Both the position numbers and the translations under genes were made by a program. The notes beneath the pieces were generated by a model. That model was not told the DNA's origin and did no database searches. It was given only the letters and a program-made list of their open reading frames with translations. This document shows positions 1-34,039 of a stretch of 54,240 nucleotides of DNA, one piece after another; within the stretch, counting starts at the first letter, position 1; each line of letters starts with the position of its first letter. Origin of the DNA: an uncultured Eubacteriales bacterium (GTDB lineage: Bacteria; Acidobacteriota; Aminicenantia; Aminicenantales; Aminicenantaceae). The DNA lies in assembly GCA_964435925.1 (NCBI GenBank), contig CAYTBG010000004.1:1792-56031 (forward strand). The letters run 5' to 3'.

Positions 1-1
1 T

Positions 2-1885: not shown

Positions 1886-1950
1886 ATTAAATCCTCCGTA
1901 TGTATTCGAATATCATTCTGCAAATAGCTGCAGAAGATATTTAAATCATC

Positions 1951-4636: not shown

Positions 4637-4641
4637 GGATC

Positions 4642-5925: not shown

Positions 5926-5948
5926 TCTCTCATCTATCAATCATTCAT

Positions 5949-6731: not shown

Positions 6732-6942
6732 TATCCTTTTTAAACTCTTCCTTTATGTCTCTAAACTCGTCAACTTGGATCTCTTCTTCAATCTTTTCTT
6801 TGATTTCGTCAGATGTCCTTCTGAATTCTCGGAGGGCTTTACCTATAGACCTTCCTACCTCAGGGAGTTTTTTGGGCCCAAAGATGAGAAGGGCAACGGC
6901 GAGAATGATGAATAATTCAGGGAGTCCTATGTTTCCGAACAT
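6697..6942 (-). CDS. tatA: Twin-arginine translocase TatA/TatB subunit
   Basis: MFGNIGLPELFIILAVALLIFGPKKLPEVGRSIGKALREFRR; start reassigned to ATG 6942. Confidence 0.92.
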   Translation of the reverse strand: MFGNIGLPELFIILAVALLIFGPKKLPEVGRSIGKALREFRRTSDEIKEKIEEEIQVDEFRDIKEEFKKDIEGNEEGKKDS

Positions 6943-7045
6943 TTCTTTCTTTTCTTTAGAGACCTGAAAGCTTATAAAAATATAGCCGTTCAACCGGATT
7001 AAGTCAAGTTAGCACCTCCAAATCCATGATTGAGAAAAAATGGTG

Positions 7046-7140
7046 AGAAAAAATGGGGCCAGGCCCCATTTTCTGCTGTTATGTCCTCAAGTTGAGAATG
7101 TCCTCTTTCTTACAAAATGGGGCCTGGCCCCATTTTTTCT
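7046..7140. repeat. Inverted REP doublet (REPIN-like), GGGGCCAGGCCCC core
   Basis: 27 bp arm 7046-7072 AGAAAAAATGGGGCCAGGCCCCATTTT and its exact reverse complement at 7114-7140; each arm is itself a hairpin. Confidence 0.85.
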
Positions 7141-7245
7141 TGAACATAGCAACCAGTTATCACGGAAAAAAGAGGCGTCCCTAACTCTACAAGAACTTTA
7201 CAAGAACAAGAGGCTCTGGTAGTATTTGAGTGGACTGAAACAGGA

Positions 7246-8811
7246 ATGAAAAGAAAAATATCTTTACTATTTGCTTTGATCTTTGTGCTCGTCCTTGTTC
7301 CTGCTCGGAATGAGGATATCTGGAGTTCATATTTTGAGAAAGTATCCTCCATTGCTTCCCTCATAGAAGAAAGCTATTTTCGGGACATTGACCAGGAGGA
7401 GCTTGCCTATTCCTCTATAAAAGGGATGCTTCAGACTTTGGATCCGCATTCTTATTTTCTTGATCCAAGTCATTTCTCTCGTTTGAGAGAAGAACACGTG
7501 GGGAAATATCACGGCCTGGGAATCCTAATCCAGAAGCAGGAACAGCGTTTGGTTGTAATCTCTCCTATAGAAGGAGGGCCTGCATACAGGTTGGGAATTC
7601 AGGCTGGAGATGTTATTTCTCATATCAGCGGCGAGAGCACAAAGCCAATAACGAGTTACGAAGCAATGCTAAAGTTAAGGGGCGTTAAGGGAACCAAGGT
7701 CAAGATAACAATTGTCCGCGAGGGGATGGAAAAGCCTTTTGAGATGACCATAGTGAGGGAGGAGATACCTCTTTACAGCGTTCCCTATTCCTTTCTGCTT
7801 CAAGACGAAATTGGATACATTTTCATCCGAAATTTTGGTGGAACCACGACCAAGGAATTTGAAGAAAAAATGGAGTCGTTAGTCAAGCAAGGAATGAAGA
7901 GCCTCATCCTTGATATGAGGACGAATGGTGGCGGCACTTTTATTCAATCAATAGAGATTTCGGATGAATTTCTATCAAGAGGCACTCTTATTGTTTCAAT
8001 GAAAGGGAAGAAAAAGGAATACAATAGAGAATTCCGAGCTTTATACGACAATCAATATGAAAAAATTCCCCTTGTAATACTGATAAATCGAGGAAGTGCC
8101 AGCGCTCCTGAAATCGTAAGCGGAGCCATAAAGGATAACGACAGAGGTTTTATCGTGGGTGAAACCTCCTTTGGAAAAGGGCTGGTTCAGACAGTTCATC
8201 CCCTTTCTATGAATGCTGCGGTTGCCCTGACGACTGCAAAATATTTTACGCCGAGCGGCAGGTCAATCCAGAGAGATTATACTCACATTGAAGATTATAG
8301 GTTCACCACAAGAATCCAAGAAGCAGAAAGAGAAGTGAGGTATACTTCGGGAGGAAGAAAGGTCCTGGGCCAGGGAGGAATATCTCCTGATTATGAAGTG
8401 AAATTCTCTTTTCAGACTGTTACGGCACAGCTGCTGATTAAGGGAGCATTTTTCTCCTATGCTCAAAAGTTCTCGCATAATAATACTCCTCTGTCGAAAA
8501 GAATCAGCTTTCCCCCTAAAAGCCAGACACGGGTTAAAGATTCTGGCAGAAAAAAAGTTGTGGGAAGAGATTTTATCGTTGGTTCTCTGGTTATGAAAGA
8601 TTTCAAGGACTATCTTCGGGTAAGTAAAATTGATTATGACTTAGATCAATTTGAAGAGGCGAAAGAAGAAATAAAAAGAGAACTGGAAAGAGAGATATTT
8701 TCTTCACTCTGGGGCATTGAGGAAGGAGTAAAGGTTTATCGGAGTAGCGATCCTGTTGTTTTAAAAGCTATAGACGTCTTACCCGAAGCTTCAACCCTCA
8801 TAGAAAAATAA
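7246..8811 (+). CDS. S41 family C-terminal processing peptidase (CtpA/Prc-like)
   Basis: LDPHS, PDZ region, LILDMRTNGGG, SASAPEIVSGA, SFGKGLVQ, YFTPSGRSIQ; N-terminal signal. Confidence 0.93.
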   Translation: MKRKISLLFALIFVLVLVPARNEDIWSSYFEKVSSIASLIEESYFRDIDQEELAYSSIKGMLQTLDPHSYFLDPSHFSRLREEHVGKYHGLGILIQKQEQRLVVISPIEGGPAYRLGIQAGDVISHISGESTKPITSYEAMLKLRGVKGTKVKITIVREGMEKPFEMTIVREEIPLYSVPYSFLLQDEIGYIFIRNFGGTTTKEFEEKMESLVKQGMKSLILDMRTNGGGTFIQSIEISDEFLSRGTLIVSMKGKKKEYNREFRALYDNQYEKIPLVILINRGSASAPEIVSGAIKDNDRGFIVGETSFGKGLVQTVHPLSMNAAVALTTAKYFTPSGRSIQRDYTHIEDYRFTTRIQEAEREVRYTSGGRKVLGQGGISPDYEVKFSFQTVTAQLLIKGAFFSYAQKFSHNNTPLSKRISFPPKSQTRVKDSGRKKVVGRDFIVGSLVMKDFKDYLRVSKIDYDLDQFEEAKEEIKRELEREIFSSLWGIEEGVKVYRSSDPVVLKAIDVLPEASTLIEK

Positions 8812-8848
8812 AATGGGGCCAAATAAAATGGGGCCAGGCCCCATTATT
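8810..8848 (+). repeat. REP-like palindrome (one partial + one full copy)
   Basis: AAAATGGGGCC 8810-8820, then AAAATGGGGCCAGGCCCCATT from 8825. Confidence 0.8.
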
Positions 8849-8864
8849 CCCACGTCTATTAATT

Positions 8865-9835
8865 GTTAGGCCGGATAAAACCCTATCACAGGCAACGCCG
8901 TACAGGATGAAGGGGCCATGTGATTCCGAAAATGATTCGTCTTGGAGGACGGTATGCAACGACGACTGGTAGCTAGAAAGAGAGTCACGATTTTCTTGGT
9001 CACAATGTTCTCTTTCACGGCGATCGTTCTGGTGATGATGTCCGTGAGCGATGTTTTCGAGGCCATGGGATTCTTTGCCCTCGGATGGTCACCAGCGGCC
9101 GCAGCGTTTGTGACCATCCTCGTTACCGGCGGCAAGTTGACTGACCTTGGATTCCGGAAATCGCGGCCTCGATTTCTATTGCTCAGCATCGGTCTTGCTT
9201 GGTTCCTTGTCGTAACCGTCTACGGAACGGCGTGGCTCACCGGACTCGGTGGTTTCTATGATCAGTCGTTCGTCACGAATGCTCGCGACACCTTCAACAT
9301 CACCGCTGCTTCACCCCTTCAGGTCATCGCCATAAGTGGTGGCCTCTACGGGACGGTTGGCATTCTGTTCGCCAGTGTCCTAGCGCTCGGTGAAGAAATC
9401 GGATGGCGCGGTCTGCTGGTTCAAGAGCTCGCGAGGTTCAATTCGTTTACGAAAACGGCGCTCCTGAGTGGCGGCGTCTGGGCGCTATGGCATTTCCCGG
9501 TAATCTTGTTTTTTGGATACCACTCAAAGGCACCAGTTTGGTACGGCTTAGCGTGTGCCTCGACTGCTATGGTCTTGGTGAGCTTTCCATATGCTTGGTT
9601 GCGCCTGATGTCAGGTAGCGTTTGGACCGCCGCACTCTTGCATGGCGCCCACAACGTGCTGTTCCAAGAGATCTTCCATCCGTTGACCGTTGATACCGGT
9701 GCCACAGAATATGTCGTAGGCGAGTTCGGAGCCCTCGTGATACTCCCCGTGGCCTTCATCGTTTGGTTGGTTTGCCGCTACCGCGACCGAATTCCAAATC
9801 TTGCGTCAGAGGCGGACTAACAACTGGCTCAAGCG
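8865..9835 (+). mobile_element. Integron-gene-cassette-like unit with truncated attC
   Basis: GTTAGGC (GTTRRRY core) at 8865-8871. The gene stop lies inside GACTAAC (9815-9821), followed by AACTGGCTCAAGCG, resembling an attC left half; the rest is missing. Confidence 0.55.
8942..9820 (+). CDS. CPBP (CAAX/Abi) intramembrane glutamic endopeptidase
   Basis: LGEEIGWRG, WALWHFP, AALLHGAHN; visibly more GC-rich than its neighbours. Confidence 0.9.
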   Translation: MEDGMQRRLVARKRVTIFLVTMFSFTAIVLVMMSVSDVFEAMGFFALGWSPAAAAFVTILVTGGKLTDLGFRKSRPRFLLLSIGLAWFLVVTVYGTAWLTGLGGFYDQSFVTNARDTFNITAASPLQVIAISGGLYGTVGILFASVLALGEEIGWRGLLVQELARFNSFTKTALLSGGVWALWHFPVILFFGYHSKAPVWYGLACASTAMVLVSFPYAWLRLMSGSVWTAALLHGAHNVLFQEIFHPLTVDTGATEYVVGEFGALVILPVAFIVWLVCRYRDRIPNLASEAD

Positions 9836-9840
9836 TGATT

Positions 9841-9865
9841 AAAATGGGGCCAGGCCCCATTTTCT
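9841..9865 (+). repeat. REP-like palindrome
   Basis: AAAATGGGGCCAGGCCCCATTTTCT, same orientation as the 8825 copy. Confidence 0.85.
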
Positions 9866-9913
9866 AAAAAAAGGATTCTTCTTTTATTTACTTTTTTTTG
9901 TGAGATTTTTCTT

Positions 9914-9989
9914 GTAGGGGCTTGATTCATCAAGCCCACCTTTCTGATCTTAATAATTTATTAGTATGTTTGATAAATCAAACACCTAC
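9914..9989. repeat. GTAG-type REP inverted doublet (second REP family)
   Basis: GTAGGGGCTTGATTCATCAAGCCC at 9914-9937 and GTTTGATAAATCAAACACCTAC at 9968-9989 (reverse complement GTAGGTGTTTGATTTATCAAAC). Confidence 0.7.
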
Positions 9990-10098
9990 ACAAATAAAAG
10001 GAATCCAAACACAGATTCCCTTTTTTCAAGACAATCTTGTGTTTAACACTCTTTAAAATATTGTTATAATGACAAATCAATAATTAGAGGAGGAGTAA

Positions 10099-10548
10099 GT
10101 GAAAATTGCCACAGCCTCGGATCACGCAGGGTATGAGCTTAAGAAGGGAATCACAGCCTATCTTTCAGAGAAAGGAATAAAACACGAGGATTTTGGCTGC
10201 GGTCCAGGTGAAAAGGTTGATTATGTTGATTATGCGGAGAAAGCCATTAAAAGGGTCTCTTCAGGTGAGTATGACCGGGCAATCCTTGTTTGCGGTACAG
10301 GCCTTGGAATGGCTATCGTCGCCAACAAGCACAAAGGGATAAGAGCAACTTCCTGTTTGGATGAATATACGGCAGAAATGAGCCGCAGACACAACGATTC
10401 AAACTGTCTTACTTTAGGAGGGAGGATTGTTCCCCTGGATGAGGCCTTAAGCGTTGTCCGGATATGGCTTGAAACAGAGTTTGAGGGTGAACGGCATCAA
10501 AGAAGAATCGATAAAATTATTGATATAGAAGAGAGAAATTTTAAATAA
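10099..10548 (+). CDS. rpiB: Ribose-5-phosphate isomerase B
   Basis: ASDHAGYELK, CGTGLGM, HNDSNCLTLG, FEGERHQRR; GGAGG RBS, GTG start. Confidence 0.95.
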   Translation: MKIATASDHAGYELKKGITAYLSEKGIKHEDFGCGPGEKVDYVDYAEKAIKRVSSGEYDRAILVCGTGLGMAIVANKHKGIRATSCLDEYTAEMSRRHNDSNCLTLGGRIVPLDEALSVVRIWLETEFEGERHQRRIDKIIDIEERNFK

Positions 10549-10568
10549 ATAAGAGAGGAGTAAGAACA

Positions 10569-12005
10569 ATGTCTTCATTTTATGAAAAAATCCAAAATTT
10601 ATCTCAAAAGATAATAGAGAATAATAATTGGAGGCAGAGGGAATCTTTCAACCTCATTCCCTCTGAAACGACTCCTTCGACTCTGGTGAAGATGTGCGAG
10701 ATATCTGATCCCTCTGGCCGTTATGCTGAACACAGGACTATGAAAGGAGAAGAAATCTATTTTTACCAGGGAATAGATTTCATAAGGGATGTTGAAGAGG
10801 AAGCACGGCGCGAGTTCCAGCGCTTCTTTGATTGCACAGAAGTGGAATTACGAACAATAAGCGGCCAGATGGCCAACGAAGTCGTATTCAAAGGTTTGGT
10901 CCGCTTTCTCAATCGCGACCGCCCTCAAGGACAGCCGACGCGGAAGATGAAGCTGGTCATGAATAATGCGCTGACAAAAGGAGGACATCTCAGCTCTCAG
11001 CCCATGGGAGCGCTTTTCAACTTCGTGCAGGAGAATCCAGAAACAGGAAAGGAAAATGTCATCAATTTTCCTGTTTTAAGCGAAAATCAGTACAAGCCTG
11101 ACCTTGCCAAACTCGGAGAAATTTTAGACCGGCACAAGCCTGAGCTCATGGTGTTTGGCAAGAGCATGTTTCTCTACCAGGAGCCTGTCAAATTTGTTCA
11201 TGATATTGTTAAAGACTGGGAGGTGCCGCCCGTTATCATGTTTGATATGGCTCATGTTTTGGGGATATATGGTGCTTTTCAGGCGCCCTTAAGCGAAGGG
11301 GCTAATGTTATAACCGGAAGCACTCATAAAACCTTTTTCGGTCCTCAGAGAGGGATAGTAGCAGGCAACTTTCCCAAAGGGAGTCCGCTTCGAAAATTAT
11401 GGCTGGATATCAAAGGCCGTGCTTTTCCTGGTTCAACCAGCAACCATCATTTGGGAACGCTCCTTGCTCTGTTGATGGCTGTTTATGAAATGAATGAGTT
11501 TAAAGAAGAGTACCAGAAACAGGTCAGAGCCAATGCCAAAGCTTTTGCCCGGGCTTTGAAAGATACGAAAATTCAGGTAGAGGGAGATGAAAAAGATGGG
11601 TTTACAGAGACTCATCAAGTTGTTATCCGCATCAAAGCCCACGGCGACGGCCAGGAAATTGCCCGCCGTCTGGAAGAAAACAATATTGTAACCAATTATC
11701 AGGCGCTGCCAGATGATGAGACCTTTCTCAAAGCGAGTGGAATCCGAATGGGCGTCCAGGAAATGACCCGCTTCGGGATGAAAGAGAAAGATTTTGCCCA
11801 GCTTTCAGGTTTTATAGCAGATGTTATTATCAGGAACAAAAAGGTTAAGGAAGAGGTGAAAAAATATCGCGCCAACTTCCTCCAGATGAAGTACTGCCTT
11901 TCTCCCCAGGAAGCCCTCCCTATCGCAGCGAAAATAATTAAAAGCATCTTTCCCTACCCTGATTTTGCTGATTTGTTCATAGAAAACTTAGAGAAAAATA
12001 TCTAA
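10569..12005 (+). CDS. glyA: Serine hydroxymethyltransferase, archaeal-like/divergent type
   Basis: NLIPSE, SGQMAN, GGHLS, FDMAHV, STHKTFFGPQRG (PLP Lys), FPGSTSNHHL, SGIRMGVQEMTRFG. Confidence 0.85.
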   Translation: MSSFYEKIQNLSQKIIENNNWRQRESFNLIPSETTPSTLVKMCEISDPSGRYAEHRTMKGEEIYFYQGIDFIRDVEEEARREFQRFFDCTEVELRTISGQMANEVVFKGLVRFLNRDRPQGQPTRKMKLVMNNALTKGGHLSSQPMGALFNFVQENPETGKENVINFPVLSENQYKPDLAKLGEILDRHKPELMVFGKSMFLYQEPVKFVHDIVKDWEVPPVIMFDMAHVLGIYGAFQAPLSEGANVITGSTHKTFFGPQRGIVAGNFPKGSPLRKLWLDIKGRAFPGSTSNHHLGTLLALLMAVYEMNEFKEEYQKQVRANAKAFARALKDTKIQVEGDEKDGFTETHQVVIRIKAHGDGQEIARRLEENNIVTNYQALPDDETFLKASGIRMGVQEMTRFGMKEKDFAQLSGFIADVIIRNKKVKEEVKKYRANFLQMKYCLSPQEALPIAAKIIKSIFPYPDFADLFIENLEKNI

Positions 12006-12009
12006 AAGG

Positions 12010-12094
12010 GAGAAAAAGGGGACAGGCTACTTTTTCTGATGTTCTATCCACGAGTAGCGACTACGGAGAAAAAGTAGCCTGTCCCCTTTTTCTC
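12010..12094. repeat. Inverted REP doublet, GGGGACAGGCTAC core
   Basis: GAGAAAAAGGGGACAGGCTACTTTTTCT 12010-12037 and its reverse complement 12067-12094. Confidence 0.85.
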
Positions 12095-12155
12095 TTTTAT
12101 TGACGGATAGAGCCTTTTTTGTCAGAATGATTCAAAAAATAACGAGAGAGTCAAG

Positions 12156-13436
12156 ATGAAGATTTTAGTTATTGGTTCAGGCGGGAGAGAGCATGCCCTT
12201 GCCTGGAAAATATCCGAGAGCCCCCACCTTGAGAAACTCTTCTGCGCACCCGGAAATCCAGGCACGATGAGCATTGCTGAAAATGTCGCTATCGATTCCT
12301 CTGATATCAAGGGACTAACTGATTTTGCCGCACAGGAGAAAATTGGGTTGACAGTCGTAGGACCCGAGCTTCCTTTGACACAAGGCATAGTTGATGAGTT
12401 TGAAGAGAGAGGCTTAAAGATATTCGGGCCGAATAAAAACACCGCACAGCTCGAAGGAAGCAAAGTATTCGCCAAGCAATTTATGGAACGCCACAAAATA
12501 CCAACCGCCAGGTCCAAGATCGCAGAGTCCCCGGAGGCGGCAGTAGAAATCTTGAATTCAGGAGAATTTTCTTTTCCTGTGGTTGTAAAGGCAGACGGAT
12601 TGGCTGCGGGAAAGGGAGTCATAATCTGCAAAAACCTGAAAGAAGCAGAGGAAGTTGTCCGCCTAATCATGGTTGAGAGAAAATTCGGTGAGGCAGGAAG
12701 AAGAGTTCTCGTTGAAGAATGCTTGAGGGGAAAAGAGACTTCCTTCATAGTCCTATCAGATGGGAAAGAAGTAGTGCCGCTGGTCACGACCATGGACCAT
12801 AAACCTGTTTATGATGGCGATAAGGGCCCGAATACAGGAGGAATGGGAGCAATTTCCCCTTCTCCTTTTATTGACAAAGAGCTATTTGCAGAAATAATGA
12901 GGTCCATTGTGCTCCCGACAGTGACCCACATGCGTGAAGAGGGAAGAAAATATAAGGGTGTTCTTTATGTAGGATTGATGCTGACAGAGGAGGGGCCTAA
13001 GGTGCTCGAGTACAACTGCCGTTTTGGAGACCCGGAGACTCAACCTCAGGTGTTGAGGATGGAGAGCGACCTTGTGGATATTCTCCTGGCCATAATAGGA
13101 GAAGATGCGCAAGGAAAGGAAATACAATGGAGCCCTAACGCTTCTGGCTGCGTGGTCTTGGCTTCAGGGGGTTATCCGCTTGCCTACGAGAAAGGAAAGC
13201 GCATTGAAGGCCTGAAGCGGGCCTCAGAGATACCGGGCATCGCTGTCTTCCATGCAGGCACAAAGTTCGAAGAGGGAGAATATTACACAAATGGTGGTAG
13301 AGTGATAGGTGTTTGTGCTTCAGAGGAAAATTTAGGTGAAACCATGGAAAAGATATACAATGCCATTTCCGGGATATCTTTTGAAGGCATGCATTTCCGG
13401 AGAGATATCGGTGCATTAAGGGAGGAAGAGGGATGA
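12156..13436 (+). CDS. purD: Phosphoribosylamine-glycine ligase
   Basis: GSGGREHAL, LEGSKVFAK, VVKADGLAAGKGV, GPNTGGMG, NCRFGDPETQ. Confidence 0.97.
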   Translation: MKILVIGSGGREHALAWKISESPHLEKLFCAPGNPGTMSIAENVAIDSSDIKGLTDFAAQEKIGLTVVGPELPLTQGIVDEFEERGLKIFGPNKNTAQLEGSKVFAKQFMERHKIPTARSKIAESPEAAVEILNSGEFSFPVVVKADGLAAGKGVIICKNLKEAEEVVRLIMVERKFGEAGRRVLVEECLRGKETSFIVLSDGKEVVPLVTTMDHKPVYDGDKGPNTGGMGAISPSPFIDKELFAEIMRSIVLPTVTHMREEGRKYKGVLYVGLMLTEEGPKVLEYNCRFGDPETQPQVLRMESDLVDILLAIIGEDAQGKEIQWSPNASGCVVLASGGYPLAYEKGKRIEGLKRASEIPGIAVFHAGTKFEEGEYYTNGGRVIGVCASEENLGETMEKIYNAISGISFEGMHFRRDIGALREEEG

Positions 13437-13924
13437 AAGTTACAATATTCTTAGGAAGTGATTCGGATTATGACGTTGTAAAGGATGCTCAGGCAATACT
13501 CAAAGAATTTAAAGTGCCGTTCGCCCTGGAGGTCACATCTGCCCACCGTTCTCCTGCCAGAACCCTCAAACTCATAAAAGATTATGAAGAGAAAGGAGTC
13601 GAGGTTTTCATCGCTGTCGCAGGTAAAGCTGCTCATTTAGCGGGCATTGTGGCTGCGCACACAGTCAAGCCTGTTATTGGAGTTCCGGTGGAGAGTTCTT
13701 CCTTAGATGGTCTCGATGCTCTTCTCTCCACAGTTCAGATGCCAAAAGGAGTGCCAGTGGCAACTATGGGCCTGGGCAAATCAGGCGCTTCAAACTCAGC
13801 CCTCCTGGCCATCCAGATCTTGAGCCTCAATGACTCTTCCCTTGTGAAAAAATTGGAGGAATATCGGGAGAAAATGGCCGCCCGGATTGAGGCTAAGTCA
13901 AAAAAAATTCAGCAGAAATCATGA
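13433..13924 (+). CDS. purE: N5-CAIR mutase
   Basis: GSDSD, SAHRSP, AGKAAHLAG, QMPKGVPVA. Confidence 0.97.
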   Translation: MKVTIFLGSDSDYDVVKDAQAILKEFKVPFALEVTSAHRSPARTLKLIKDYEEKGVEVFIAVAGKAAHLAGIVAAHTVKPVIGVPVESSSLDGLDALLSTVQMPKGVPVATMGLGKSGASNSALLAIQILSLNDSSLVKKLEEYREKMAARIEAKSKKIQQKS

Positions 13925-15177
13925 TATCCTTTTCGATTCAAACCTTTGGCTGCCGTTCGAATCAAGCTGAGGCTTTTTTATGGGCATATGAGTTTCAGAA
14001 GCACGGGCTGAAGTATGAAAAAGATTTTTCCCGAAGCGACTTAGTCGTAGTTAACTCCTGTACACTTACCAGTCGAGCGGACAGCGACGCAAGAAGTTTT
14101 ATTAGAAAAGTTTCGCGCGTAAACCCAAAGGCAAGATTGATCGTTACCGGATGCTATGCCCAGCGTGCCCCTGAGGAATTGAGAGACATGCCCCAGGTCT
14201 CATGCCTTTTGCCCAACACAGAAAAGAAAAACTTAGAAGCAAAAGTCCTCTCTTTTGCTGGCCCGGGGAAGGAAGGGCCAATTTCACCTTTCCGTTCTCG
14301 CGCCTCTGTTAAAATTCAGGATGGGTGCAATTTCCGCTGCACTTTTTGTATCATTCCCAGCGTCAGGGGGAGAAGTGTAAGCTTTAAAAAGAGAGAAATC
14401 CTCGACCGAATCAAAGAATTCATAAGCCAGGGCTACAGGGAGATTGTTCTGACAGGAATTCATCTTTGTTCTTATGGTCTTGATCTTAACACCAGGAGCT
14501 CGCTGCTCGAGTTGCTCCAGGAAATAGAAAGCTTAAAAGGGCTCCGCAAATTAAGGTTGAGCTCTCTTGACCCTCGGTTTTTAAGCCCTTCTTTGATGGA
14601 GCACATCATAGAAAGCGGGAAAGTATGCCCTCATTTTCATCTTTCTTTACAGAGCGGATCCGATGATATACTGCATCGTATGGGTCGCAAGATAAAAATC
14701 GAGGATTACAAAAAAATTCTCACTTATTTGCGTGAGAAGTCTCCCCAGGCATCTTTGGGAGCAGACATTATCGTGGGATTCCCAGGAGAAACCGGGGAAG
14801 ATTTCAGCCAGACTTACCGCTTCCTGGAACAGTCACCTCTGACCTATCTTCATGTATTCTCCTATTCTCCTCGCCCCGGGACTGCTGCTGCTTCCTGGCA
14901 GCAGGTTAACAGCAAGGTAAAGAAGGAGAGGGCGGGACTTTTAAGGGATTTATCCAGCAGGAAGAATACGAACTTTCGCCGGCTTTTTGTAGGGAAGGAA
15001 TTCGAGGCAATTGTTATAAAAAAGGAAGAAGCCGGGGCTGAAGTTTTGACATCCAATTATTTTAAAGTTTTCGTTCCTTCCTGTCCTCACGATGAAAGAA
15101 ACGAAGTAAGAGTGAAAATCAGAAAAGTAGATACTGGAAAAACAACAGGACAAATTGTCAATTTACTAAGCTCCTAA
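13921..15177 (+). CDS. mtaB: tRNA methylthiotransferase MtaB (radical SAM)
   Basis: TFGCRSN, NSCT, QDGCNFRCTFCIIP, HVFSYSPRPGT. Confidence 0.9.
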   Translation: MISFSIQTFGCRSNQAEAFLWAYEFQKHGLKYEKDFSRSDLVVVNSCTLTSRADSDARSFIRKVSRVNPKARLIVTGCYAQRAPEELRDMPQVSCLLPNTEKKNLEAKVLSFAGPGKEGPISPFRSRASVKIQDGCNFRCTFCIIPSVRGRSVSFKKREILDRIKEFISQGYREIVLTGIHLCSYGLDLNTRSSLLELLQEIESLKGLRKLRLSSLDPRFLSPSLMEHIIESGKVCPHFHLSLQSGSDDILHRMGRKIKIEDYKKILTYLREKSPQASLGADIIVGFPGETGEDFSQTYRFLEQSPLTYLHVFSYSPRPGTAAASWQQVNSKVKKERAGLLRDLSSRKNTNFRRLFVGKEFEAIVIKKEEAGAEVLTSNYFKVFVPSCPHDERNEVRVKIRKVDTGKTTGQIVNLLSS

Positions 15178-15302
15178 GAAATTATGTAGCCATCTCCAAA
15201 AAATATTTCTGGATTTCATTTAAATCCATATTTCCCATATTAAGTGTTAAATAAATGATACACATTTTTTGAAATGAGTGTGAATATCCCCTTGGATAAT
15301 TT

Positions 15303-15318
15303 TGGCATGTTTAATGCT
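15303..15318 (+). promoter_or_regulatory. Putative sigma-54 -24/-12 promoter
   Basis: TGGCAT-GTTTA-ATGCT; GG and GC 12 nt apart, upstream of an RBS at 15345. Confidence 0.5.
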
Positions 15319-15354
15319 ATTAATATCTATAGCGGATATTAATTGGAGGAAATC

Positions 15355-15504
15355 ATGCCGAAATTCATGACCCGCAATGAAGATTGGTACATTATTTGCG
15401 TTACAAAATGGGGAATACGCGGTAATTCAAACTATTTGCCTTCTGATACGTATATTTGTTACGTAAGCGATTACTTAATTATGTTCGATCAAAGAACAAA
15501 ATAA
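15355..15504 (+). CDS. Small ORF (49 aa), unknown
   Basis: GGAGG RBS; MPKFMTRNEDWYIICVTKWG...QRTK*; stop abuts the RBS/ATG of the MFP gene. Confidence 0.35.
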   Translation: MPKFMTRNEDWYIICVTKWGIRGNSNYLPSDTYICYVSDYLIMFDQRTK

Positions 15505-15507
15505 GGA

Positions 15508-16785
15508 ATGAAGATGGTTATGTCAAAGAAAAAAATTATTATTGGATCAATTATAATCCTGGTAATTGGGGTAATGATTATTTTAATTTCGACGAGAAAT
15601 AAAGGTGATCAAGGAATTTCGGTGGAAACTGCAAAAGTTGAACGACAAAAAATTGTGGAAACGGTTACTGCGACAGGAAGAATTCAGCCCAAAACAAAGG
15701 TCAAGATAAGCGCTGATGTTGCCGCGAAAATTACCGACTTGAATGTAAAAGAAGGTGAATGGGTTGAGAAGGGCAATTTTCTTGTTCAATTGGATCGGGA
15801 GCGTTTTTTAGCTGCAATGGAAAGCGCAGAAGCAAATTTGAAGGCAAGCGAGTCTAATGCTACGTTGGCAAAGGAAAATATGCTCAAAGCTGAAAAGGAT
15901 TATGTTCGAATCAAAGAATTATTCGAACAAAATCTGGAAACCCAGGCAAATTTAGACCAAACTTATGCGGCTGACAGAGCGGAAAAAGCACGTTACAATT
16001 CTGCGTTACAGCAGGTAGAGCAGGCAAAGGCTGTACTTAAACAAGCAAAAGATGATCTGTCCAAGACCACTATCTATGCTCCAATGTCCGGAACTATCAG
16101 TGAACTCAACAAAGAAGTAGGTGAAATTGCTCTTGGTTCTCAATTTCAAGAAGATGTGATCATGATTATTTCCAAGCTTTCCGGAATGGAAACATTGGTG
16201 AATGTTGATGAGAACGATGTTGTTTCTGTGGCTGTGGGAGACAGTGCAACAATAGAAGTGGATGCATTGCCAGATCAAGTTTTCCATGGTGTAGTAAGCG
16301 AAATTGCCAGCAGTGCAACAATCACTGGATCAGGTACCATGGACCAAAAAACCGAATTTGAGGTTAAAATTTCTATCACCAATCCTGGCAGAGAGTTAAG
16401 ACCTGGCATGACTGCAAGTAGTGATATTATTACAGAAACCAGGGAAGATGCGCTTGGTATCCCCATTCAATGTGTCACTGTTAGAACTCCGGAGCAGTTA
16501 AAAAAGAAAAAACCAAATGCTGGTGGTGTTGCTATTGATGACAGTTCATCCGAAGAAAATTACGTTCCAGATAAAGATGGCTTTGTAGAAGTGGTTTTTA
16601 TCGTAGAAGATGGCATTGCTAAGGCAAAACAGGTGAAAACCGGCATCCAGAGTGAAACTCACATTGAAATTATCGAAGGATTATCTGAAGGTGAAAAAAT
16701 TGTTACTGGAAGTTATCGTGCGATAAGTCAAACATTGCAAAATCAATCCCAGGTAGAAGTAAAAAAAGTGGATCAGCAAAAATAA
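15508..16785 (+). CDS. Efflux periplasmic adaptor (MFP, MacA/HlyD family)
   Basis: N-terminal TM, VTATGRIQP, coiled coil, TIYAPMSGTI, VNVDENDV, LRPGMTA. Confidence 0.92.
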   Translation: MKMVMSKKKIIIGSIIILVIGVMIILISTRNKGDQGISVETAKVERQKIVETVTATGRIQPKTKVKISADVAAKITDLNVKEGEWVEKGNFLVQLDRERFLAAMESAEANLKASESNATLAKENMLKAEKDYVRIKELFEQNLETQANLDQTYAADRAEKARYNSALQQVEQAKAVLKQAKDDLSKTTIYAPMSGTISELNKEVGEIALGSQFQEDVIMIISKLSGMETLVNVDENDVVSVAVGDSATIEVDALPDQVFHGVVSEIASSATITGSGTMDQKTEFEVKISITNPGRELRPGMTASSDIITETREDALGIPIQCVTVRTPEQLKKKKPNAGGVAIDDSSSEENYVPDKDGFVEVVFIVEDGIAKAKQVKTGIQSETHIEIIEGLSEGEKIVTGSYRAISQTLQNQSQVEVKKVDQQK

Positions 16786-25190: not shown

Positions 25191-25222
25191 TTGCTTGGAA
25201 TACATGCTCGTTTTACAAGTCT

Positions 25223-25297
25223 CGGGGAGTAGCGTAGCCTGGTTAGCGCGCCTGCTTTGGGAGCAGGAGGTCGTCGGTTCGAATCCGATCTCCCCGA
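25223..25297 (+). tRNA. tRNA-Pro(TGG)
   Basis: CGGGGAG/CTCCCCG acceptor, CCTGC-TTTGGGA-GCAGG anticodon arm, GTTCGAATC; CCA not encoded. Confidence 0.95.
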
Positions 25298-25366
25298 TTA
25301 AAGCTTAAAACGGATAAAGCAGCAATCGGATATAGAAGCCGATTGAGATAGAAAAATATCAAAAAT

Positions 25367-25444
25367 GCGCCTGTAGCTCAGTCAGGATAGAGCAGCTGCC
25401 TTCTAAGCAGCGGGTCGGAGGTTCGAGTCCTTCCAGGCGCGCCA
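25367..25444 (+). tRNA. tRNA-Arg(TCT)
   Basis: GCGCCTG/CAGGCGC acceptor, GCTGC-CTTCTAA-GCAGC arm, GTTCGAGTC, GCCA end. Confidence 0.95.
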
Positions 25445-28859: not shown

Positions 28860-29300
28860 TTGATGACGGTGGGGATTGAAATGGAGATTATCGGGAAAAA
28901 AATTATTAAGAACGCTTTACAAGAAATTAAATTAGATATTCAGAAAGCTAGAGAAAATGCAAAAATTCCATTTGTTAAGGCAGGAATAGACGGTACAAAT
29001 TTTAGTGAGGGAAAAATACAAGGAATAAAAGAAGCAGAAAACATAATAAAAAGAGGTCTGGATAAGATAGAAACTCAAACATGCCATCTTTTTTTTAGCA
29101 GAGCTGATTTTAAACCAGAAGGAATAGAACATCTTTGGAGAAACCTTGCTATTGAAGAGGATAAGAAGAACTACTTTGAAAAAATATGTCTAAATATTGT
29201 TGGGGTGAAAGTTTATCTTAAATTTCCTGAGAAGGAAGAAATGTTAGTCTGCATCACTTCAGAAGATGGAAGTTTGAAAGTTATTGGGATTGTTGATTAA
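28860..29300 (+). CDS. Hypothetical protein
   Basis: 146 aa ORF, no recognised motif. Confidence 0.6.
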   Translation: MMTVGIEMEIIGKKIIKNALQEIKLDIQKARENAKIPFVKAGIDGTNFSEGKIQGIKEAENIIKRGLDKIETQTCHLFFSRADFKPEGIEHLWRNLAIEEDKKNYFEKICLNIVGVKVYLKFPEKEEMLVCITSEDGSLKVIGIVD

Positions 29301-29382
29301 GAATAGATCATGTTTATCTTATAAATTTTGGATTAAATAAGACAGATACGAAAAAAATAGAAAATAATATTGTGAGCCAAGC

Positions 29383-29440
29383 GGAAGCCAAAAACCTTAG
29401 AACCTTGGCATTCCTAGATTGACAAAAGACGCTGAGCGAG
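29383..29440 (+). repeat. Intergenic repeat R1 (58 bp)
   Basis: GGAAGCCAAAAACCTTAGAACCTTGGCATTCCTAGATTGACAAAAGACGCTGAGCGAG; 49/58 identical to R2. Confidence 0.9.
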
Positions 29441-29502
29441 ATCAGGTCCTCATAGCTAAAGAGGAGTAAGGAAAAAAGTGAATTTTTAAGTAAAGGGTAA
29501 AA

Positions 29503-29685
29503 ATGAATTTTGAAGAGAAGCTGAAGTCTCAGAGAATAATAATTGCTATTGCTTTGATATTGATGTCCTTGATTTCATTTAATTTCGCGATACAAAGTAC
29601 TCTCACAATTATTTCTTTTATTATAGGTCTTGCTTTTTTAGGGATGGCGTTTTTTCTCTTGTTTGGATTAAAGAAGAAACGTTGA
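29503..29685 (+). CDS. Small 2-TM hypothetical protein (60 aa)
   Basis: Two hydrophobic helices, basic termini; lies between R1 and R2. Confidence 0.7.
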   Translation: MNFEEKLKSQRIIIAIALILMSLISFNFAIQSTLTIISFIIGLAFLGMAFFLLFGLKKKR

Positions 29686-29692
29686 GGCGATT

Positions 29693-29757
29693 GGAAGCCA
29701 AAAACCCTAAAGCCTTGGCTTCCCTGGATTGAAAAAGGACGCTGAACGAGTTAGAAT
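29693..29757 (+). repeat. Intergenic repeat R2 (hairpin + sigma-70 promoter)
   Basis: GGAAGCCAA...TTGGCTTCC 9 bp stem; TTGAAA(29729)-N17-TAGAAT(29752). Confidence 0.9.
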
Positions 29758-29776
29758 TCTTATAAGTGGGGGCGAA

Positions 29777-30901
29777 ATGAAAAGCAAAACTAAGGTCATT
29801 TCAATCGTTTTGTTTCTTTCACTCTTCATAATGCTTACTTCCTGTCAGAAACAAAATTCTGAATGGAAAGGGACAATAGAGGAAGAAGATGGAGTCATAG
29901 TCGTTAAGAATCCGAAAGAGCCGATGTATAGTGAAGATGTCTGTAGTATAAAAGAGGAACTATCCATTGGGGAAGCAGATGGGAGAGAAGAATATATGTT
30001 TTCTCAAATAATTGATGTGGGAATTGATGATGAGGAGAATATATATATTCTTGATTTTTTAGAAGCCCATATTAAGGTATTTAACAAAAGCGGTGAACAC
30101 TTAAGAACTATAGGAAGAAGAGGTCAGGGTCCTGGGGAAATACAACGAGCAGTAAACATATATATCACGCCTTCGAATGAAATCCTTATCAATGACCGAG
30201 GTGCTCGATATTTTCATTTCTTTACATTAGGCGAGGAATATATAAGGTCAGTATATCAAAGCAGATTATCTCGTCCACGGGTTGATACACAAAATAACAT
30301 AGTTGCGAGGTCTACTATTATGGATAGGGCTGAAGTCCGTTTTGTTTTAAAAAAATTTGATTCTGAACTAAATGAGCTATATACAATTTTTTCTTACAGA
30401 AGTGAAATCACTCCTAAAATTTATAATGTTTATCCTGCACAGTGTTTTTGGGATGTTAGACGTGATGATAGCATAGTTTGGGGATATGCTGATAAATATG
30501 AGTTTCATATCCTTGACAGGAGCGGACAAGTTATTCGAAAGATAATCAAAGATTATGAACCTGTAGAAATAACAGAAGAAGAAAAACAGAATTGGGTTAA
30601 GAATATTTTTGGAGATAACGGTGTTCCTCCAGACGTAAAGGTGAACTGGGATAAATATCATAATGCATTCCAGTTTTTGAACATTGATGATGTAGGGAGA
30701 ATTTTCGTTCATACATATGAAAAGACAACTGAGGGAGGGAGTTATTATTATGATGTCTTTAATTCGGAAGGAAAATACATAACAAAAGTTCCCCTTAAAA
30801 CCAGACCTCAGGTTTTCAAAAAGAGCAGGCTTTACACCATAGAAGAAGACGAGGAAGGATTTCAATTTGTTAAAAAATATAAAATAACTTGGAAATATTA
30901 A
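29777..30901 (+). CDS. 6-bladed beta-propeller-type lipoprotein
   Basis: Lipobox LTSC, GRRGQGPGEI, IYILDFLEAHIKVF, YYDVFNSEGKYI; start reassigned to ATG 29777. Confidence 0.8.
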   Translation: MKSKTKVISIVLFLSLFIMLTSCQKQNSEWKGTIEEEDGVIVVKNPKEPMYSEDVCSIKEELSIGEADGREEYMFSQIIDVGIDDEENIYILDFLEAHIKVFNKSGEHLRTIGRRGQGPGEIQRAVNIYITPSNEILINDRGARYFHFFTLGEEYIRSVYQSRLSRPRVDTQNNIVARSTIMDRAEVRFVLKKFDSELNELYTIFSYRSEITPKIYNVYPAQCFWDVRRDDSIVWGYADKYEFHILDRSGQVIRKIIKDYEPVEITEEEKQNWVKNIFGDNGVPPDVKVNWDKYHNAFQFLNIDDVGRIFVHTYEKTTEGGSYYYDVFNSEGKYITKVPLKTRPQVFKKSRLYTIEEDEEGFQFVKKYKITWKY

Positions 30902-30907
30902 CGGATT

Positions 30908-30960
30908 AGAAGCCAAATCCCCTAAAGCCCTAGCATCCCGATTCTGAAAAAGCCAGCTCT
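30908..30960 (+). repeat. Intergenic repeat R3 (diverged)
   Basis: AGAAGCCAAATCCCCTAAAGCCCTAGCATCCCGATTCTGAAAAAGCC, directly after the propeller stop. Confidence 0.75.
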
Positions 30961-31045
30961 TGAATTTTATGTTTAACCAATGAAGCCTAGCCTCATATCT
31001 CAATAATCAATCCTCCCAGCTTCCCCTATCCCCAGGCGTAAGATT

Positions 31046-31126
31046 GCGTCGCATTACTATTATTATGTCGACCCGTAAGCTCTAGGTTATTGATTATCAA
31101 GAAATCAGAAAAATAAAGACATTTAA
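31046..31126 (+). other. dif-like (11-6-11) site plus conserved AT-rich flank, copy D1
   Basis: GCGTCGCATTA-CTATTA-TTATGTCGACC versus E. coli dif GGTGCGCATAA-TGTATA-TTATGTTAAAT. Confidence 0.55.
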
Positions 31127-31363
31127 AAACAAGGAAATTAGCATAGTGAGGTCAAGATTTGATATTTATTGAAGTAGCAAAAGTTTGAATGTTCATGAAA
31201 AATGAACAATGCGAATTATTGAACATTATACTTTCTAAGGATATTTAATTCTTAAAGATTATGGCAAATATTCAAAAAATATTGACATTTGTACATTATT
31301 TTGTTATGTTCACAAATATTGTACAACTAACATAATTGTACATACAGAGGAGTGTGATTATCA

Positions 31364-32404
31364 ATGAACATGAAAATTATAGAGAAGGAGATTTTGAATG
31401 GAGCGCTACAAAAGTTTCGTGAAAATACAAGACTTGCTGTTGAGATAGTTGAGATTGAGGGGAAGGCAGTTAATGCAGGCCACATTCATGACGCAATAAT
31501 CAAAATTAAATGGAAAGATTTGGATTACTTTTTTGCGGTTGAAGTTAAAAACATTATCGCGCGGGCGACACTTGGAGGAGCTATACAGAAGTTTCATTTA
31601 TTTAAGGAAAAAGGGATGCTCGTTGCAAGGTATATTACTCCTCAAATGGCAGACGAGCTAAAAAAAATGGACATTCCTTTCATCGATGTCACTGGAAATG
31701 CATATATAAATGAACCACCTTTGCTGATATTTATAAAAGGGAATAAGCCTACTGATAAATATCACTTAGAACAGCCAGCGCGCACTTTTCGACCGGCAGG
31801 ACTACAAGTTATTTTTGCACTTTTGTGTAATCCAGGACTGGAAACTGCTCCTTTAAGAGAAATAGCTAATAAAGCAACTGTTGCCTTAGGAACAGTCGGC
31901 TGGGTAATGTATGATCTAAGGAGAACGAATTATCTGATAGAGCTACATCCACGAAATCGACGATTGATTCGCAAAGAAAATTTGTTGAATAGATGGGCTG
32001 CTGCATATCCTGAGCAATTGCGACGGAAAAAGACGTTAGGTCGCTTTCGTGCAGATAAGCAGGATTGGCAGAAATATGCCCAACTAAAAGATATTAAAGG
32101 TCTGTGGGGTGGCGAATTTGCTGCAAATATATTGACAAAATATCTGAAGCCACAAATTTATACGATTTATGCAAAACTCCCTATTGGTAGGTTTCTGCTG
32201 AGAAACAAGCTTAAGAAGGACATCAATGGAGATATAGAAATTCTCAATATATTTTGGGAGTTTGGACCTAAACGGCTAAATAAGGGATTAGTGCCTCCCC
32301 TCTTGATTTACGCGGACCTTCTTGCAACGGGTGATGCCCGAAATATTGAAACTGCGAGGATTATTTATGAAAGGGAGCTTACTGGACATATCGGGGAAGA
32401 TTGA
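31364..32404 (+). CDS. Type IV TA antitoxin, AbiEi-like
   Basis: IPFIDVTGNAYI, LREIANKATVALGTV HTH, VPPLLIYADLL..GDARNIETA. Confidence 0.85.
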   Translation: MNMKIIEKEILNGALQKFRENTRLAVEIVEIEGKAVNAGHIHDAIIKIKWKDLDYFFAVEVKNIIARATLGGAIQKFHLFKEKGMLVARYITPQMADELKKMDIPFIDVTGNAYINEPPLLIFIKGNKPTDKYHLEQPARTFRPAGLQVIFALLCNPGLETAPLREIANKATVALGTVGWVMYDLRRTNYLIELHPRNRRLIRKENLLNRWAAAYPEQLRRKKTLGRFRADKQDWQKYAQLKDIKGLWGGEFAANILTKYLKPQIYTIYAKLPIGRFLLRNKLKKDINGDIEILNIFWEFGPKRLNKGLVPPLLIYADLLATGDARNIETARIIYERELTGHIGED

Positions 32405-33230
32405 TAGAGTAAGACTGCTAGCTTTGGAGAAAGTTACCAAGATAGCAGAATCTCTAGGCATCCCAATCTTTATGATAGGTGCTGCAGCTAGGGATTTGAT
32501 ACTCACGAATGGCCATAACATACCTACTATCAGAGCTACCCTTGATATTGATTTTGGCGTCCAAGTTCCGAGTTGGGATGAATATTTGAAACTTAAACAA
32601 GGCTTAGTTAAGACGGGTGAATTTACTGAAGCTGATGATGTCCAAAGGTTGATGTTTCAAAACAGTCTAAGAATAGATTTAATTCCATTCGGACCGATTG
32701 CAGATAAAACTCATACTATTAAATGGCCGCCCGATCAGGAGATAATGATGAGTATTCTTGGCTTCGAGGAAGCGTTCCGTCATTCACAAACTATTAGACT
32801 AAGTTCAAATCCTAACCTTGATATAAAAATAGTAACACTAGCTGGATTAGCGGCTATGAAAATAATCTCTTGGAAAGATAGATACCCAGAACGCGATAGA
32901 GATGCAATCGATCTAGCATTAATTATTCGAAATTATACAGAGGCAGGAAATTTTGAGCGCATTTTTAATGAAGCATCAGACTTAGCAGACTCTGAAGATT
33001 TTGATTCTGTAACTGTTGGAGCGAGATTATTGGGTCGAGATATTGCTGTGGTTCTTTCAACTGATGCCATGGCCGTAGTTTTGGAAATATTGAATAATGA
33101 AACAGGAAAACAAGATCGTTATAGACTTATAGAAGATATGATGCGGAGTGATGTATTGATTAGCGATGATTTTGAAGATGTGCTCAGGTGGCTTGAGGAA
33201 GTGAAAACAGGAATCTTAGAGGGGATTTAA
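32367..33230 (+). CDS. Type IV TA toxin, AbiEii-like nucleotidyltransferase
   Basis: MIGAAARD, RATLDIDFG, IDLIPFG, MKIISW.DR..RDRDAIDL; start reassigned to ATG 32367. Confidence 0.85.
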   Translation: MKGSLLDISGKIDRVRLLALEKVTKIAESLGIPIFMIGAAARDLILTNGHNIPTIRATLDIDFGVQVPSWDEYLKLKQGLVKTGEFTEADDVQRLMFQNSLRIDLIPFGPIADKTHTIKWPPDQEIMMSILGFEEAFRHSQTIRLSSNPNLDIKIVTLAGLAAMKIISWKDRYPERDRDAIDLALIIRNYTEAGNFERIFNEASDLADSEDFDSVTVGARLLGRDIAVVLSTDAMAVVLEILNNETGKQDRYRLIEDMMRSDVLISDDFEDVLRWLEEVKTGILEGI

Positions 33231-33313: not shown

Positions 33314-33389
33314 GCGTCGCCTAACTTCATGTAAACTCATAAACTCTGTGCTGTAGATATCAGTAAATAAGAAGAATAACGACATTTAA
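33314..33389 (+). other. Degenerate dif-like site plus flank, copy D2
   Basis: GCGTCGCCTAA-CT-TCATGTAAACT (spacer shortened); the next ~52 nt match the D1 flank at about 40/53. Confidence 0.5.
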
Positions 33390-33567: not shown

Positions 33568-33786
33568 ATGCTTGCCATAAGGCTTCCAGACGAGATTGAA
33601 AAACGTCTTGAGAAATTAGCAAAAAAAACCGGGCGAACAAAAAGTTATTATGTTCGTCAGGCAATCCTTGAATATCTGGAAGACATGGAGGATTATTATC
33701 TTGCTGAGGAGCGGTTGAAATCCTTTAATGAGGCTAAAACTATTCCTCTTGAAGAAATAATGAAGCGATATGGCCTGGAAGATTGA
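33568..33786 (+). CDS. Type II antitoxin, RHH (RelB/CopG-like)
   Basis: MLAIRLPDEIEKRLEKLAKKTGRTKSYYVRQAI, EDMEDYYLA; GGAGG RBS. Confidence 0.9.
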   Translation: MLAIRLPDEIEKRLEKLAKKTGRTKSYYVRQAILEYLEDMEDYYLAEERLKSFNEAKTIPLEEIMKRYGLED

Positions 33787-34039
33787 ATTTTTGCCTGAAG
33801 CAGAAAAAGATCTGAGGGAAATAGACCCTCCAGTTGTCCAACGTATTTTAAGGTTCTTGTATGAAAGAGTAAGACTTCTGGAAGATCCGCGAAAGATCGG
33901 AGAAGCTTTGAAAGGCCCTAAACTTGGAAAATATTGGAAGTACAGGGTTGGCGATTATCGGATAATCTGCCAGATAAGAGAGACAGAGATAACCATTCTT
34001 GTGGTGAGAGTAGGACAACGAAAAAATGTCTATCGTTGA
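33770..34039 (+). CDS. RelE/ParE family toxin
   Basis: WKIEFLPEAEKDL, WKYRVGDYRIIC, VVRVGQRKNVYR. Confidence 0.92.
   Translation: MAWKIEFLPEAEKDLREIDPPVVQRILRFLYERVRLLEDPRKIGEALKGPKLGKYWKYRVGDYRIICQIRETEITILVVRVGQRKNVYR

Follow-up and report, generated by a model that had tools for sequence, protein, structure and literature searches.

A sequence-conserved intergenic repeat punctuates arrays of single accessory genes in Aminicenantaceae genomes

The window analysed here is a stretch of 54,240 nucleotides from the genome of an uncultured member of the Aminicenantaceae (assembly GCA_964435925.1, contig CAYTBG010000004.1, positions 1,792 to 56,031 of the forward strand). It contains three co-oriented copies, R1, R2 and R3, of one repeat, which we name the GAAGCC element (consensus TTGAGGCGAGTGGAAGCCAAAGACCCTAAAGCCCTGGCTTCCCTGGATTGAAAAAGACAGCTGAGCGAATTAG) and which apparently has not been described before; our literature searches found no description of it. 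In our best explanation, the element is a portable, protein-recognized boundary and promoter module at which gene units recombine, a reading that we put forward tentatively and to which we would give a probability of about 0.4. The element, an intergenic and strand-specific module of ~70 nt that keeps its sequence and not its structure, would then move together with accessory genes and delimit the single-gene units of arrays with a fast turnover. That a protein binds it, that it acts as a promoter and that units recombine at it are properties that we infer. A protein probably recognizes two 8-bp inverted half-sites, which are separated by a conserved 15-nt spacer and followed by TTGAAAAAG; a proportion of the copies, R2 included, would supply a sigma-70 promoter for the next gene; and the units are probably joined, lost, duplicated and reordered at the element, because it is the only sequence that these otherwise unrelated units have in common.

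R1, R2 and R3 are confirmed as genuine copies of a single repeat, as an earlier note on the same DNA had observed. R1 and R2, the likeness of which it gave as 49/58, are 81% identical over 68 nt, and all three copies align over 49 nt at 78% identity; moreover, a degenerate 26-nt core pattern matched exactly R1, R2 and R3 in the window and found nothing in 100 shuffles. The layout that it described (R1, a gene for a 60-amino acid (aa) protein, R2, a lipoprotein gene, R3) agrees with the coordinates, the open reading frames (ORFs) and the Pfam assignments:

29373..29443, plus strand: R1, a repeat copy with TTGACA at the -35-like position (nhmmer E 1.8e-14; sequence model 53.7 bits)
29503..29685, plus strand: gene for a 60-aa two-helix membrane protein, the 'cassette' between R1 and R2 (ORF list)
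29683..29752, plus strand: R2, the copy nearest the consensus, with the 9-bp inverted repeat GGAAGCCAA/TTGGCTTCC and then TTGAAA-17-TAGAAT (nhmmer E 7.6e-19)
29777..30901, plus strand: gene for a DUF5128 six-bladed beta-propeller lipoprotein (Pfam PF17170, E 4.6e-9)
30902..30967, plus strand: R3, a diverged copy that has lost the hairpin (nhmmer E 1.5e-15)
30968..31047, plus strand: 3' extension of R3, which aligns with the C8 and C14 copies and with loci L021 and L023

A Pfam search with the 60-aa protein gave no match. R2 and R3 had been said to begin close to the preceding stop codon; indeed, the TGA stop of the 60-aa gene falls within the first bases of R2, and R3 starts 3 nt past the TAA stop of the propeller gene. 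A fold check likewise bears out the stem, which is perfect in R2 and has one bulged base in R1. The unit length of ~58 bp was an underestimate: the conserved core measures ~70 nt, and the 3' side of the element splits into subtypes, some of which reach about 130-170 nt.

The repeat belongs to a dispersed family, which we followed with an nhmmer profile in the own genome (an assembly that is 88% complete), with BLAST in the genomes of the genus and with a sequence-only covariance model in 81 genomes of the family. The profile search found ~12 copies in the own genome (nine strong and three weaker), BLAST found the repeat in seven of seven genomes of the genus, and the covariance model found it in 45 of the 81 family genomes, representing 25 of 39 genera, with between 0 and 29 copies in each; copy number is patchy, within genera too. 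This is the scan of the genome and its relatives that the earlier note had proposed, and the simple local duplication that it held up as an alternative does not describe the outcome, given a dispersed family and a gene order that varies among relatives. The public records with exact matches to the core carry the label Candidatus Aminicenantes. A collection of viral contigs contained no exact match to the core, and carriage of the element by phages was rejected on this ground.

Co-oriented arrays, usually with one gene per interval, occur in this genus and in five others. They comprise, for example, seven copies in 7 kb (L021), five copies (L029) and four copies (L031), and one genome, G005 (Ca. 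Aminicenantes HyVt-373), has 28 repeats. The orientation relative to the genes is strongly biased: among 111 copies, a co-oriented gene lies upstream of 99, downstream of 91 and on both sides of 81. A further feature of these arrays is that 12 of the 111 copies follow the last array gene and face a convergent gene, and seven precede the first array gene; the array-end copies without a downstream gene are conserved like the internal ones (41.1 versus 41.9 bits). The element starts at a median of ~40 nt past the upstream stop codon and ends at a median of 61 nt ahead of the next start codon. What follows it is diverse: the 90 downstream genes fall into 55 unrelated families, with 28 of the genes encoding propeller lipoproteins and 50 being singletons. 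An enrichment of secreted proteins among the downstream genes was considered and discarded, as it was lost after the collapse of paralogues (19 of 55 families versus a 36% background, by a crude rule).

The arrays lie in regions of variable gene content, as illustrated by the window itself. Its GC content drops from ~0.44 to 0.30-0.39 between 25.5 and 34 kb, and the onset of this low-GC island is just 3' of a pair of tRNA genes:

25222..25444, plus strand: tRNA-Pro and tRNA-Arg, bounding the low-GC variable island on the left (ARAGORN, Rfam)

Synteny with the congener locus L022, at 92% identity up to the tRNAs, ends at 25475 and resumes at ~37.4 kb; between these points, the repeat copies are the sole relatedness to L022. 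With flanks that are 92% identical and an interior that is unrelated except for the repeat, the window island reads as a hypervariable hotspot. Homologues of the 60-aa gene are flanked by the repeat in two congeners (L023, 15011-15193; L021, about 14400); in all, three genomes have this unit between repeats, and its neighbours differ in each. The order in G004, with the propeller unit first and then the 60-aa unit, is the reverse of that in the window. Two genomes, additionally, share a 494-aa gene at 97% identity: the repeat behind it leads to the 60-aa gene in one of them and to a DsrE-like gene in the other. A second hotspot is seen in two congeners. Their shared flank, at 94.5% identity, extends exactly to the first codon of a core RNA-methyltransferase-like gene, and the arrays upstream of that flank are entirely different (four repeats versus two), the last repeat included. 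These two loci, L063 (G065:C7) and L069 (G016:C2), lie directly upstream of the core methyltransferase gene, identified by eye as SpoU/TrmH-like, with three cassettes in one and one cassette in the other. The genes between the repeats, the earlier note had suggested, should be checked for variation and reordering: both their content and their order differ among relatives with flanks that are 92-95% identical.

The path by which the repeat itself is inherited was followed in seven sets of copies. For the 494-aa gene and for one propeller gene, the repeat goes with the upstream gene; the repeat of a 74-aa gene goes with neither neighbour, and the 60-aa gene gave no clear result. In this small sample, such mixed inheritance would seem to fit variable breakpoints better than a fixed crossover; no fixed crossover point was seen inside the GAAGCC element, and the homology breakpoints vary. 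Junctions with foreign DNA also fall inside the repeat, and involve a fragment of an IS91-like transposase (C8), a C-terminal fragment of an integrase (L052) and a 3' fragment of a tRNA (L030). The last of these, at about 13253-13302 on the minus strand of L030 (G005:C111), has the 3' part of the repeat swapped for the 3' half of a tRNA (GGTCGTAGGTTCGAATCC...) and resembles the attachment scar of an integrative element inside the repeat. Fragments and full copies of the IS91-like transposase gene are present at C8:23430-23560, C7:39957-40081 and C23:8014-8132, the C8 fragment being joined without a gap to the 5' portion of a repeat copy; an identification of the repeat as the end of the IS91-like element was rejected, because the full element copies on C7 and C23 have no repeat.

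R3 differs from R1 and R2 in that it leads into a site resembling dif, the target of XerC and XerD in the resolution of chromosome dimers; sites of this dif-like type are the only clear recombination sites near the repeats. The features on this side of the array are as follows:

31048..31072, plus strand: D1, a dif-like XerCD-type core, GTCGCATTA-CTATTA-TTATGTCGAC, which matches the family's canonical dif
31364..33230, plus strand: AbiEi/AbiEii toxin-antitoxin module between D1 and D2 (Pfam PF09952, E 2.8e-38; PF08843, E 7.6e-8)
33316..33336, plus strand: D2, a degenerate dif-like site, GTCGCCTAACT-TCATGTAAAC (sequence reading)

A pattern search found exactly one copy of GTCGCATAA-GGTATA-TTATGTAAAC in most genomes of the family, and a reversed control gave almost no matches; the sequence of the site is highly conserved, and it is evidently the family's own dif, which resembles that of Escherichia coli. 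D1 has the expected 11-6-11 geometry and arms that match the lineage's dif, R1 and R2 lying outside this test. Dif-like sites number 24 in G005, six in G070 and two in the own genome. Of the latter, one is D1, at 31048-31072, and the other, on the minus strand at C24:4306-4330 (GTCGCATAACGGTTATTATGTCAAC), has an identical counterpart in the congener G001 and is likely to be the true chromosomal dif of the own genome. The first set of copies was drawn from the own genome and from loci of relatives, most of which belong to the same genus; in it, R3 and 12 of the 58 further copies run through a conserved linker into a 25-nt site, GTCGCAnnA-N6-TTATGTCAAC. In one 10-kb array of G005, there are eight dif-like sites with the same orientation, and four of them stand immediately behind a repeat copy. 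Many of the dif-like sites of this genome, as in L029 (G005:C96:14000-30000), lie in direct orientation at the boundaries of single- or few-gene modules, in what looks like a chromosomal counterpart of the pdif modules of Acinetobacter. In the literature that we searched, we found no account of directly oriented dif-like sites forming arrays on a chromosome.

Two homology breakpoints lie inside dif-like cores, both of them seen between genomes. In the comparison of D1 with its counterpart in a congener (L021, G004), homology spans the left arm and the spacer and breaks inside the right arm; the AbiE module is 88% identical to L023 10535-12894 (G001), where the context differs, and this homology stops just past the left arm of D2. 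Where exchange in these islands is precise and site-specific, it would appear to map to the dif-like cores rather than to the repeat. The host encodes both XerD (TIGR02225, 375.7 bits; cut-off 329.6) and XerC (TIGR02224, 348.6 bits; cut-off 335.15), which are the likely recombinases at the dif-like sites. R3 and about a fifth of the genus copies are fusions with a dif-like site, and they are laid out like the accessory sequence and core of the plasmid sites cer and psi.

The GAAGCC element is constrained in sequence and not in structure. In an alignment of 51 copies, 78.4% of the cells of the 9-bp stem are paired, versus 79.0% in shuffles, with no excess of compensatory changes, and the 'loop' (CCCTAAAGCC) is as conserved as the arms. 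RNAalifold predicted no consensus structure for either the core or the long 'leader' subtype, and a conserved RNA structure in the latter was rejected for this reason. R2 folds at -18 kcal/mol with a z-score of -1.24, and the z-scores span -1.2 to +0.9. In Rfam, only the two tRNAs scored above the gathering thresholds, and nothing credible was found over 29250-31400 at E values up to 5. The terminator-like stem of the earlier note is not supported, no terminator-like site having been found; nor is the hairpin common to the repeats, R3 being unfolded (z-score +0.9). A coding reading was considered as well. Beyond the TGA in the first bases of R2, the reading frame of the 60-aa gene has no further stop for 19 codons (GDWKPKTLKPWLPWIEKGR; 29683-29745), until a second TGA is reached, and the C8 copy has this frame open too. 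Other copies offer no support for translation: the TGA serves as the stop codon of only ~6 of 95 upstream genes, and the alignment contains many single-base indels. A coding tail or read-through peptide was therefore rejected; a selenocysteine insertion hairpin after the TGA was rejected on the same grounds and because the stem shows no covariation.

The evidence for a promoter is confined to part of the family. TTGAAA-17-TAGAAT in R2 scores 10/12 as a sigma-70 promoter in a promoter scan, and R1 has TTGACA at the same place. TTGAAAAA is nearly invariant across the copies, but it is also the motif by which they were anchored. TTGAAA is kept at the -35-like position; a TAnnnT -10 at 16-18 nt is present in only 27 of 85 copies, 11 of which have the TAGAAT of the R2 subtype. 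These motifs make a promoter plausible in R2 and the copies of its subtype, but, with so few copies possessing the -10, driving transcription cannot be what the element does in general. The promoter that had been proposed for every unit is convincing only in a subset, of which R2 is the best case. A sigma-54 promoter in TGGCTTCCCTGGATTGA was rejected by eye, the spacing from GG to the TTG motif (reference TTGC) being two bases too long.

The divergence of the copies is strikingly even. Mean pairwise identity is 72-74% whether copies are compared within an array, a genome or the genus, or between genera; no pair exceeds 93.4% identity, and the copies do not cluster by genome. This pattern argues against both a recent burst of transposition and the array-specific homogeneity that is typical of the attC sites of chromosomal integrons, and it points to constraint on each copy, or else to a family-wide shared pool of units. 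The further alternative raised by the earlier note, the end of a known miniature inverted-repeat transposable element (MITE), is not borne out: there is no sign of a recently active MITE, near-identical copies are lacking, and no target-site duplications were seen in the copies read, a systematic search not having been made.

Several other explanations have to be weighed against the boundary and promoter module, and two of them make the repeat a recombination site in its own right. That it is not an integron attC, as the earlier note also said, is clear from the genome's own integron on C18, in which an intact integrase (463.9 bits; cut-off 265) is accompanied by cassettes separated by classical attC sites (e.g. 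GCATAAC...GTTATGC), which are long imperfect palindromes with RYYYAAC/GTTRRRY cores. No repeat copy is found on C18, and the attC sites there do not resemble the repeat. The R'' (RYYYAAC) and R' (GTTRRRY) cores are absent from the consensus and from R1, R2 and R3; where attC sites keep their structure and vary in sequence, the repeat does the opposite; and no integrase was found on the window's contig or beside the arrays examined, in which identity within arrays equals that between genera. The co-oriented single-gene cassettes, with a content that varies among relatives, are attC-like, and arrays of this kind do recall attC clusters without integrase. Nevertheless, it is scarcely credible, even with an intact integrase in the genome, that the repeat is an atypical attC used by the C18 enzyme, since it has neither such cores nor a conserved fold, and five of the seven genus genomes have the repeat but no integrase above the cut-off; in the two that do, the integrase stands beside classical attC sites. 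The C18 region itself (1-16100) has its integrase gene at 6415-7476 (plus strand), minus-strand cassettes on both sides of it and a second, C-terminal integrase fragment at 15919-16023 (minus strand). Our literature searches found no report of integrons in Aminicenantes.

Alternatively, the repeat could be the recombination site of a dedicated capture system, integron-like but with a sequence-defined site, in which units would leave as circles and enter at resident copies. This is unlikely, albeit the alternative that we would take most seriously. It would accommodate n + 1 co-oriented sites for n single-gene units (R1-R3 and two genes in the window), arrays that often end in a repeat, array-end copies that are as conserved as the others, and a last repeat that is part of the variable array and not of the conserved flank; the differences in content and order between close relatives, and the illegitimate junctions inside the repeat (with the IS91-like transposase, the C-terminal part of the integrase at L052 and the tRNA 3' fragment at L030), would be in keeping with it, as would the presence, 320 nt downstream of the repeat copy on C142, of a truncated tyrosine recombinase gene that retains the N-terminus. 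However, no recombinase gene is found consistently beside the arrays, the integron integrase is restricted to two of seven genus genomes and is there associated with classical attC, and the 8-bp arms, 15 conserved bases apart, do not have the geometry of core sites for tyrosine or small serine recombinases. Moreover, the homology breakpoints are not fixed, and there are no near-identical copies. The interpretation offered in the earlier note is, as a whole, partly supported by these findings: cassette-like variable arrays are real, but variable breakpoints around the repeat speak against its being a site-specific crossover; the window's contig indeed has no tyrosine recombinase gene, but the genome encodes XerC, XerD and an integron integrase; and the search for a co-occurring recombinase, which it recommended, found none that consistently accompanies the arrays examined.

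The remaining explanations do without recombination at the repeat. An RNA-level element, acting either as a 3'-untranslated or intercistronic region for the upstream gene (in processing, stability or factor-dependent termination) or as a 5' leader of the downstream gene, would account for the fixed orientation with respect to transcription (co-oriented genes upstream of 99 and downstream of 91 of the 111 copies) and for the closeness of the element start to the upstream stop codon. The loop region is, moreover, C-rich and G-poor, some subtypes have a further conserved leader that ends in AATTCTCA just ahead of the ribosome-binding site, and there is a weak hint of a covarying 3-bp mini-hairpin (score 0.156 versus 0.099; reached by 9 of 500 shuffles). 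We nevertheless judge this explanation to be quite improbable, given a main stem without covariation, the lack of a consensus structure in the core and the long subtype, ordinary folding energies, and neither an Rfam match nor a terminator-like site. We have still less confidence in a reading of the copies as non-autonomous transposable elements (MITE-like or REP-like) of old date that are now decaying and lie between genes by chance. In its favour, the repeat is dispersed in multiple copies, the number of which varies patchily even among genomes of one genus, and, in one subtype, the 5' end TGAGGCG inversely matches CGCCTCA ~73 nt downstream; against this, similarity within genomes is no higher than between genera and reaches 93.4% at most, the orientation bias with respect to genes is not expected of a MITE, no target-site duplications were seen in the copies read (no systematic search was made), and no associated transposase was found, REP-associated transposase genes not having been searched for. 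In addition, the same consensus is maintained across 25 genera, which implies selection and not decay.

The boundary and promoter module has its own difficulties. No binding protein for the GAAGCC element has been identified, and the spacer is conserved as strongly as the half-sites, which is unusual for an operator. A -10 at the right spacing is limited to 27 of 85 copies, and the 12 of 111 copies that point into a convergent gene would make no sense as pure promoters. The inheritance tests, upstream versus downstream, are mixed and cover seven copy sets only, and the dif-like fusion was seen only in this genus, the pattern having found none in 20 loci from other genera. Furthermore, at an identity of 72-74%, long perfect matches between copies are few; recombination of the RecA type would, therefore, be inefficient on them, which leaves room for a dedicated recombinase. 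A bolder proposal is an integrase-free chromosomal cassette system, in which the element would be a 3' boundary and accessory sequence that, alone or with dif-like cores, directs a host recombinase (XerC/XerD or another) to capture, excise and reorder cassettes at hotspots, and that also drives the expression of the next cassette; we regard this as a long shot, if one worth stating.

The other genes of the window island include an ADOP-type permease and a gene with a weak SLATT-like match that is below the Pfam cut-off. On the 3' side of D2, at 33568-34039, there is a pair of genes that, by eye, resembles a ribbon-helix-helix antitoxin (72 aa) and an overlapping RelE/ParE-like toxin (89 aa). 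A duplicated tRNA attachment site delimiting the window island was looked for, and none was found.

The Correia, ERIC, BOX and REP sequences are short multi-copy intergenic repeats, some of which create promoters or affect neighbouring transcripts. The GAAGCC element departs from them in having no obvious terminal inverted repeats, target duplications or near-identical copies, and in its strong orientation bias and its mere tens of copies per genome. It also resembles the 'putative mobile promoters' of promoter reuse, in which highly similar upstream regions stand before non-homologous genes, within and between genomes (PMC3575422); in contrast to these, a recognizable -10 occurs in only a subset of its copies, copies are also found after the last array gene, and the element is tied to cassette-like arrays in variable islands. 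The dif-like sites, for their part, recall the pdif/dif modules of Acinetobacter (PMC7399989, PMC12907356) and the Xer-exploiting CTX and TLC phages (PMC9226527), in that extra dif-like sites flank a small cargo, here the AbiE pair. As in Xer-dependent modules, there is no dedicated recombinase, the host XerC and XerD are present and homology breaks within the cores. In contrast to these systems, the sites described here are chromosomal, in direct orientation and arrayed, with up to 24 per genome (in one relative), and many are fused on the XerC-arm side to a GAAGCC element; conversely, most copies of the repeat, R1 and R2 included, have no dif-like core.

The Xer sites of plasmids, cer and psi, possess accessory sequences beside the core. 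The composite copies are similar in having about 100-150 nt of conserved, palindrome-containing sequence beside the XerC-side arm of a 28-nt core, but no accessory protein is known for the GAAGCC element, which also occurs alone across the family. Integrons are the textbook means by which bacteria stockpile and shuffle single genes. The arrays described here share with integron arrays and with clusters of attC sites lacking integrases (CALINs) the co-oriented, mostly single-gene units, a recurring site right after the stop codon, compact units and a variable content (IntegronFinder, PMC4889954). They differ in that the repeat has neither RYYYAAC/GTTRRRY cores nor a bottom-strand fold and is conserved in sequence, that no integrase stands beside the repeat arrays, that copies resemble each other no more within an array than across genera, and that the classical integron of the same genome uses quite different sites. 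The repeat arrays, thus, add a second kind of punctuation for single genes, found in an uncultured phylum and in a genome that has a classical integron as well; their mark is conserved in sequence and not in fold. Even if it is only a portable module with promoter and boundary functions, the element offers a handle on the expression and exchange of accessory genes in Aminicenantes, and the sequence model is able to find these arrays in metagenomes. If the element or the dif-like cores mediate capture, cassette systems would have evolved more than once and would be able to run on housekeeping recombinases; were the integrase-free cassette system to prove real, it would represent a second, independent solution to the problem that integrons solve.

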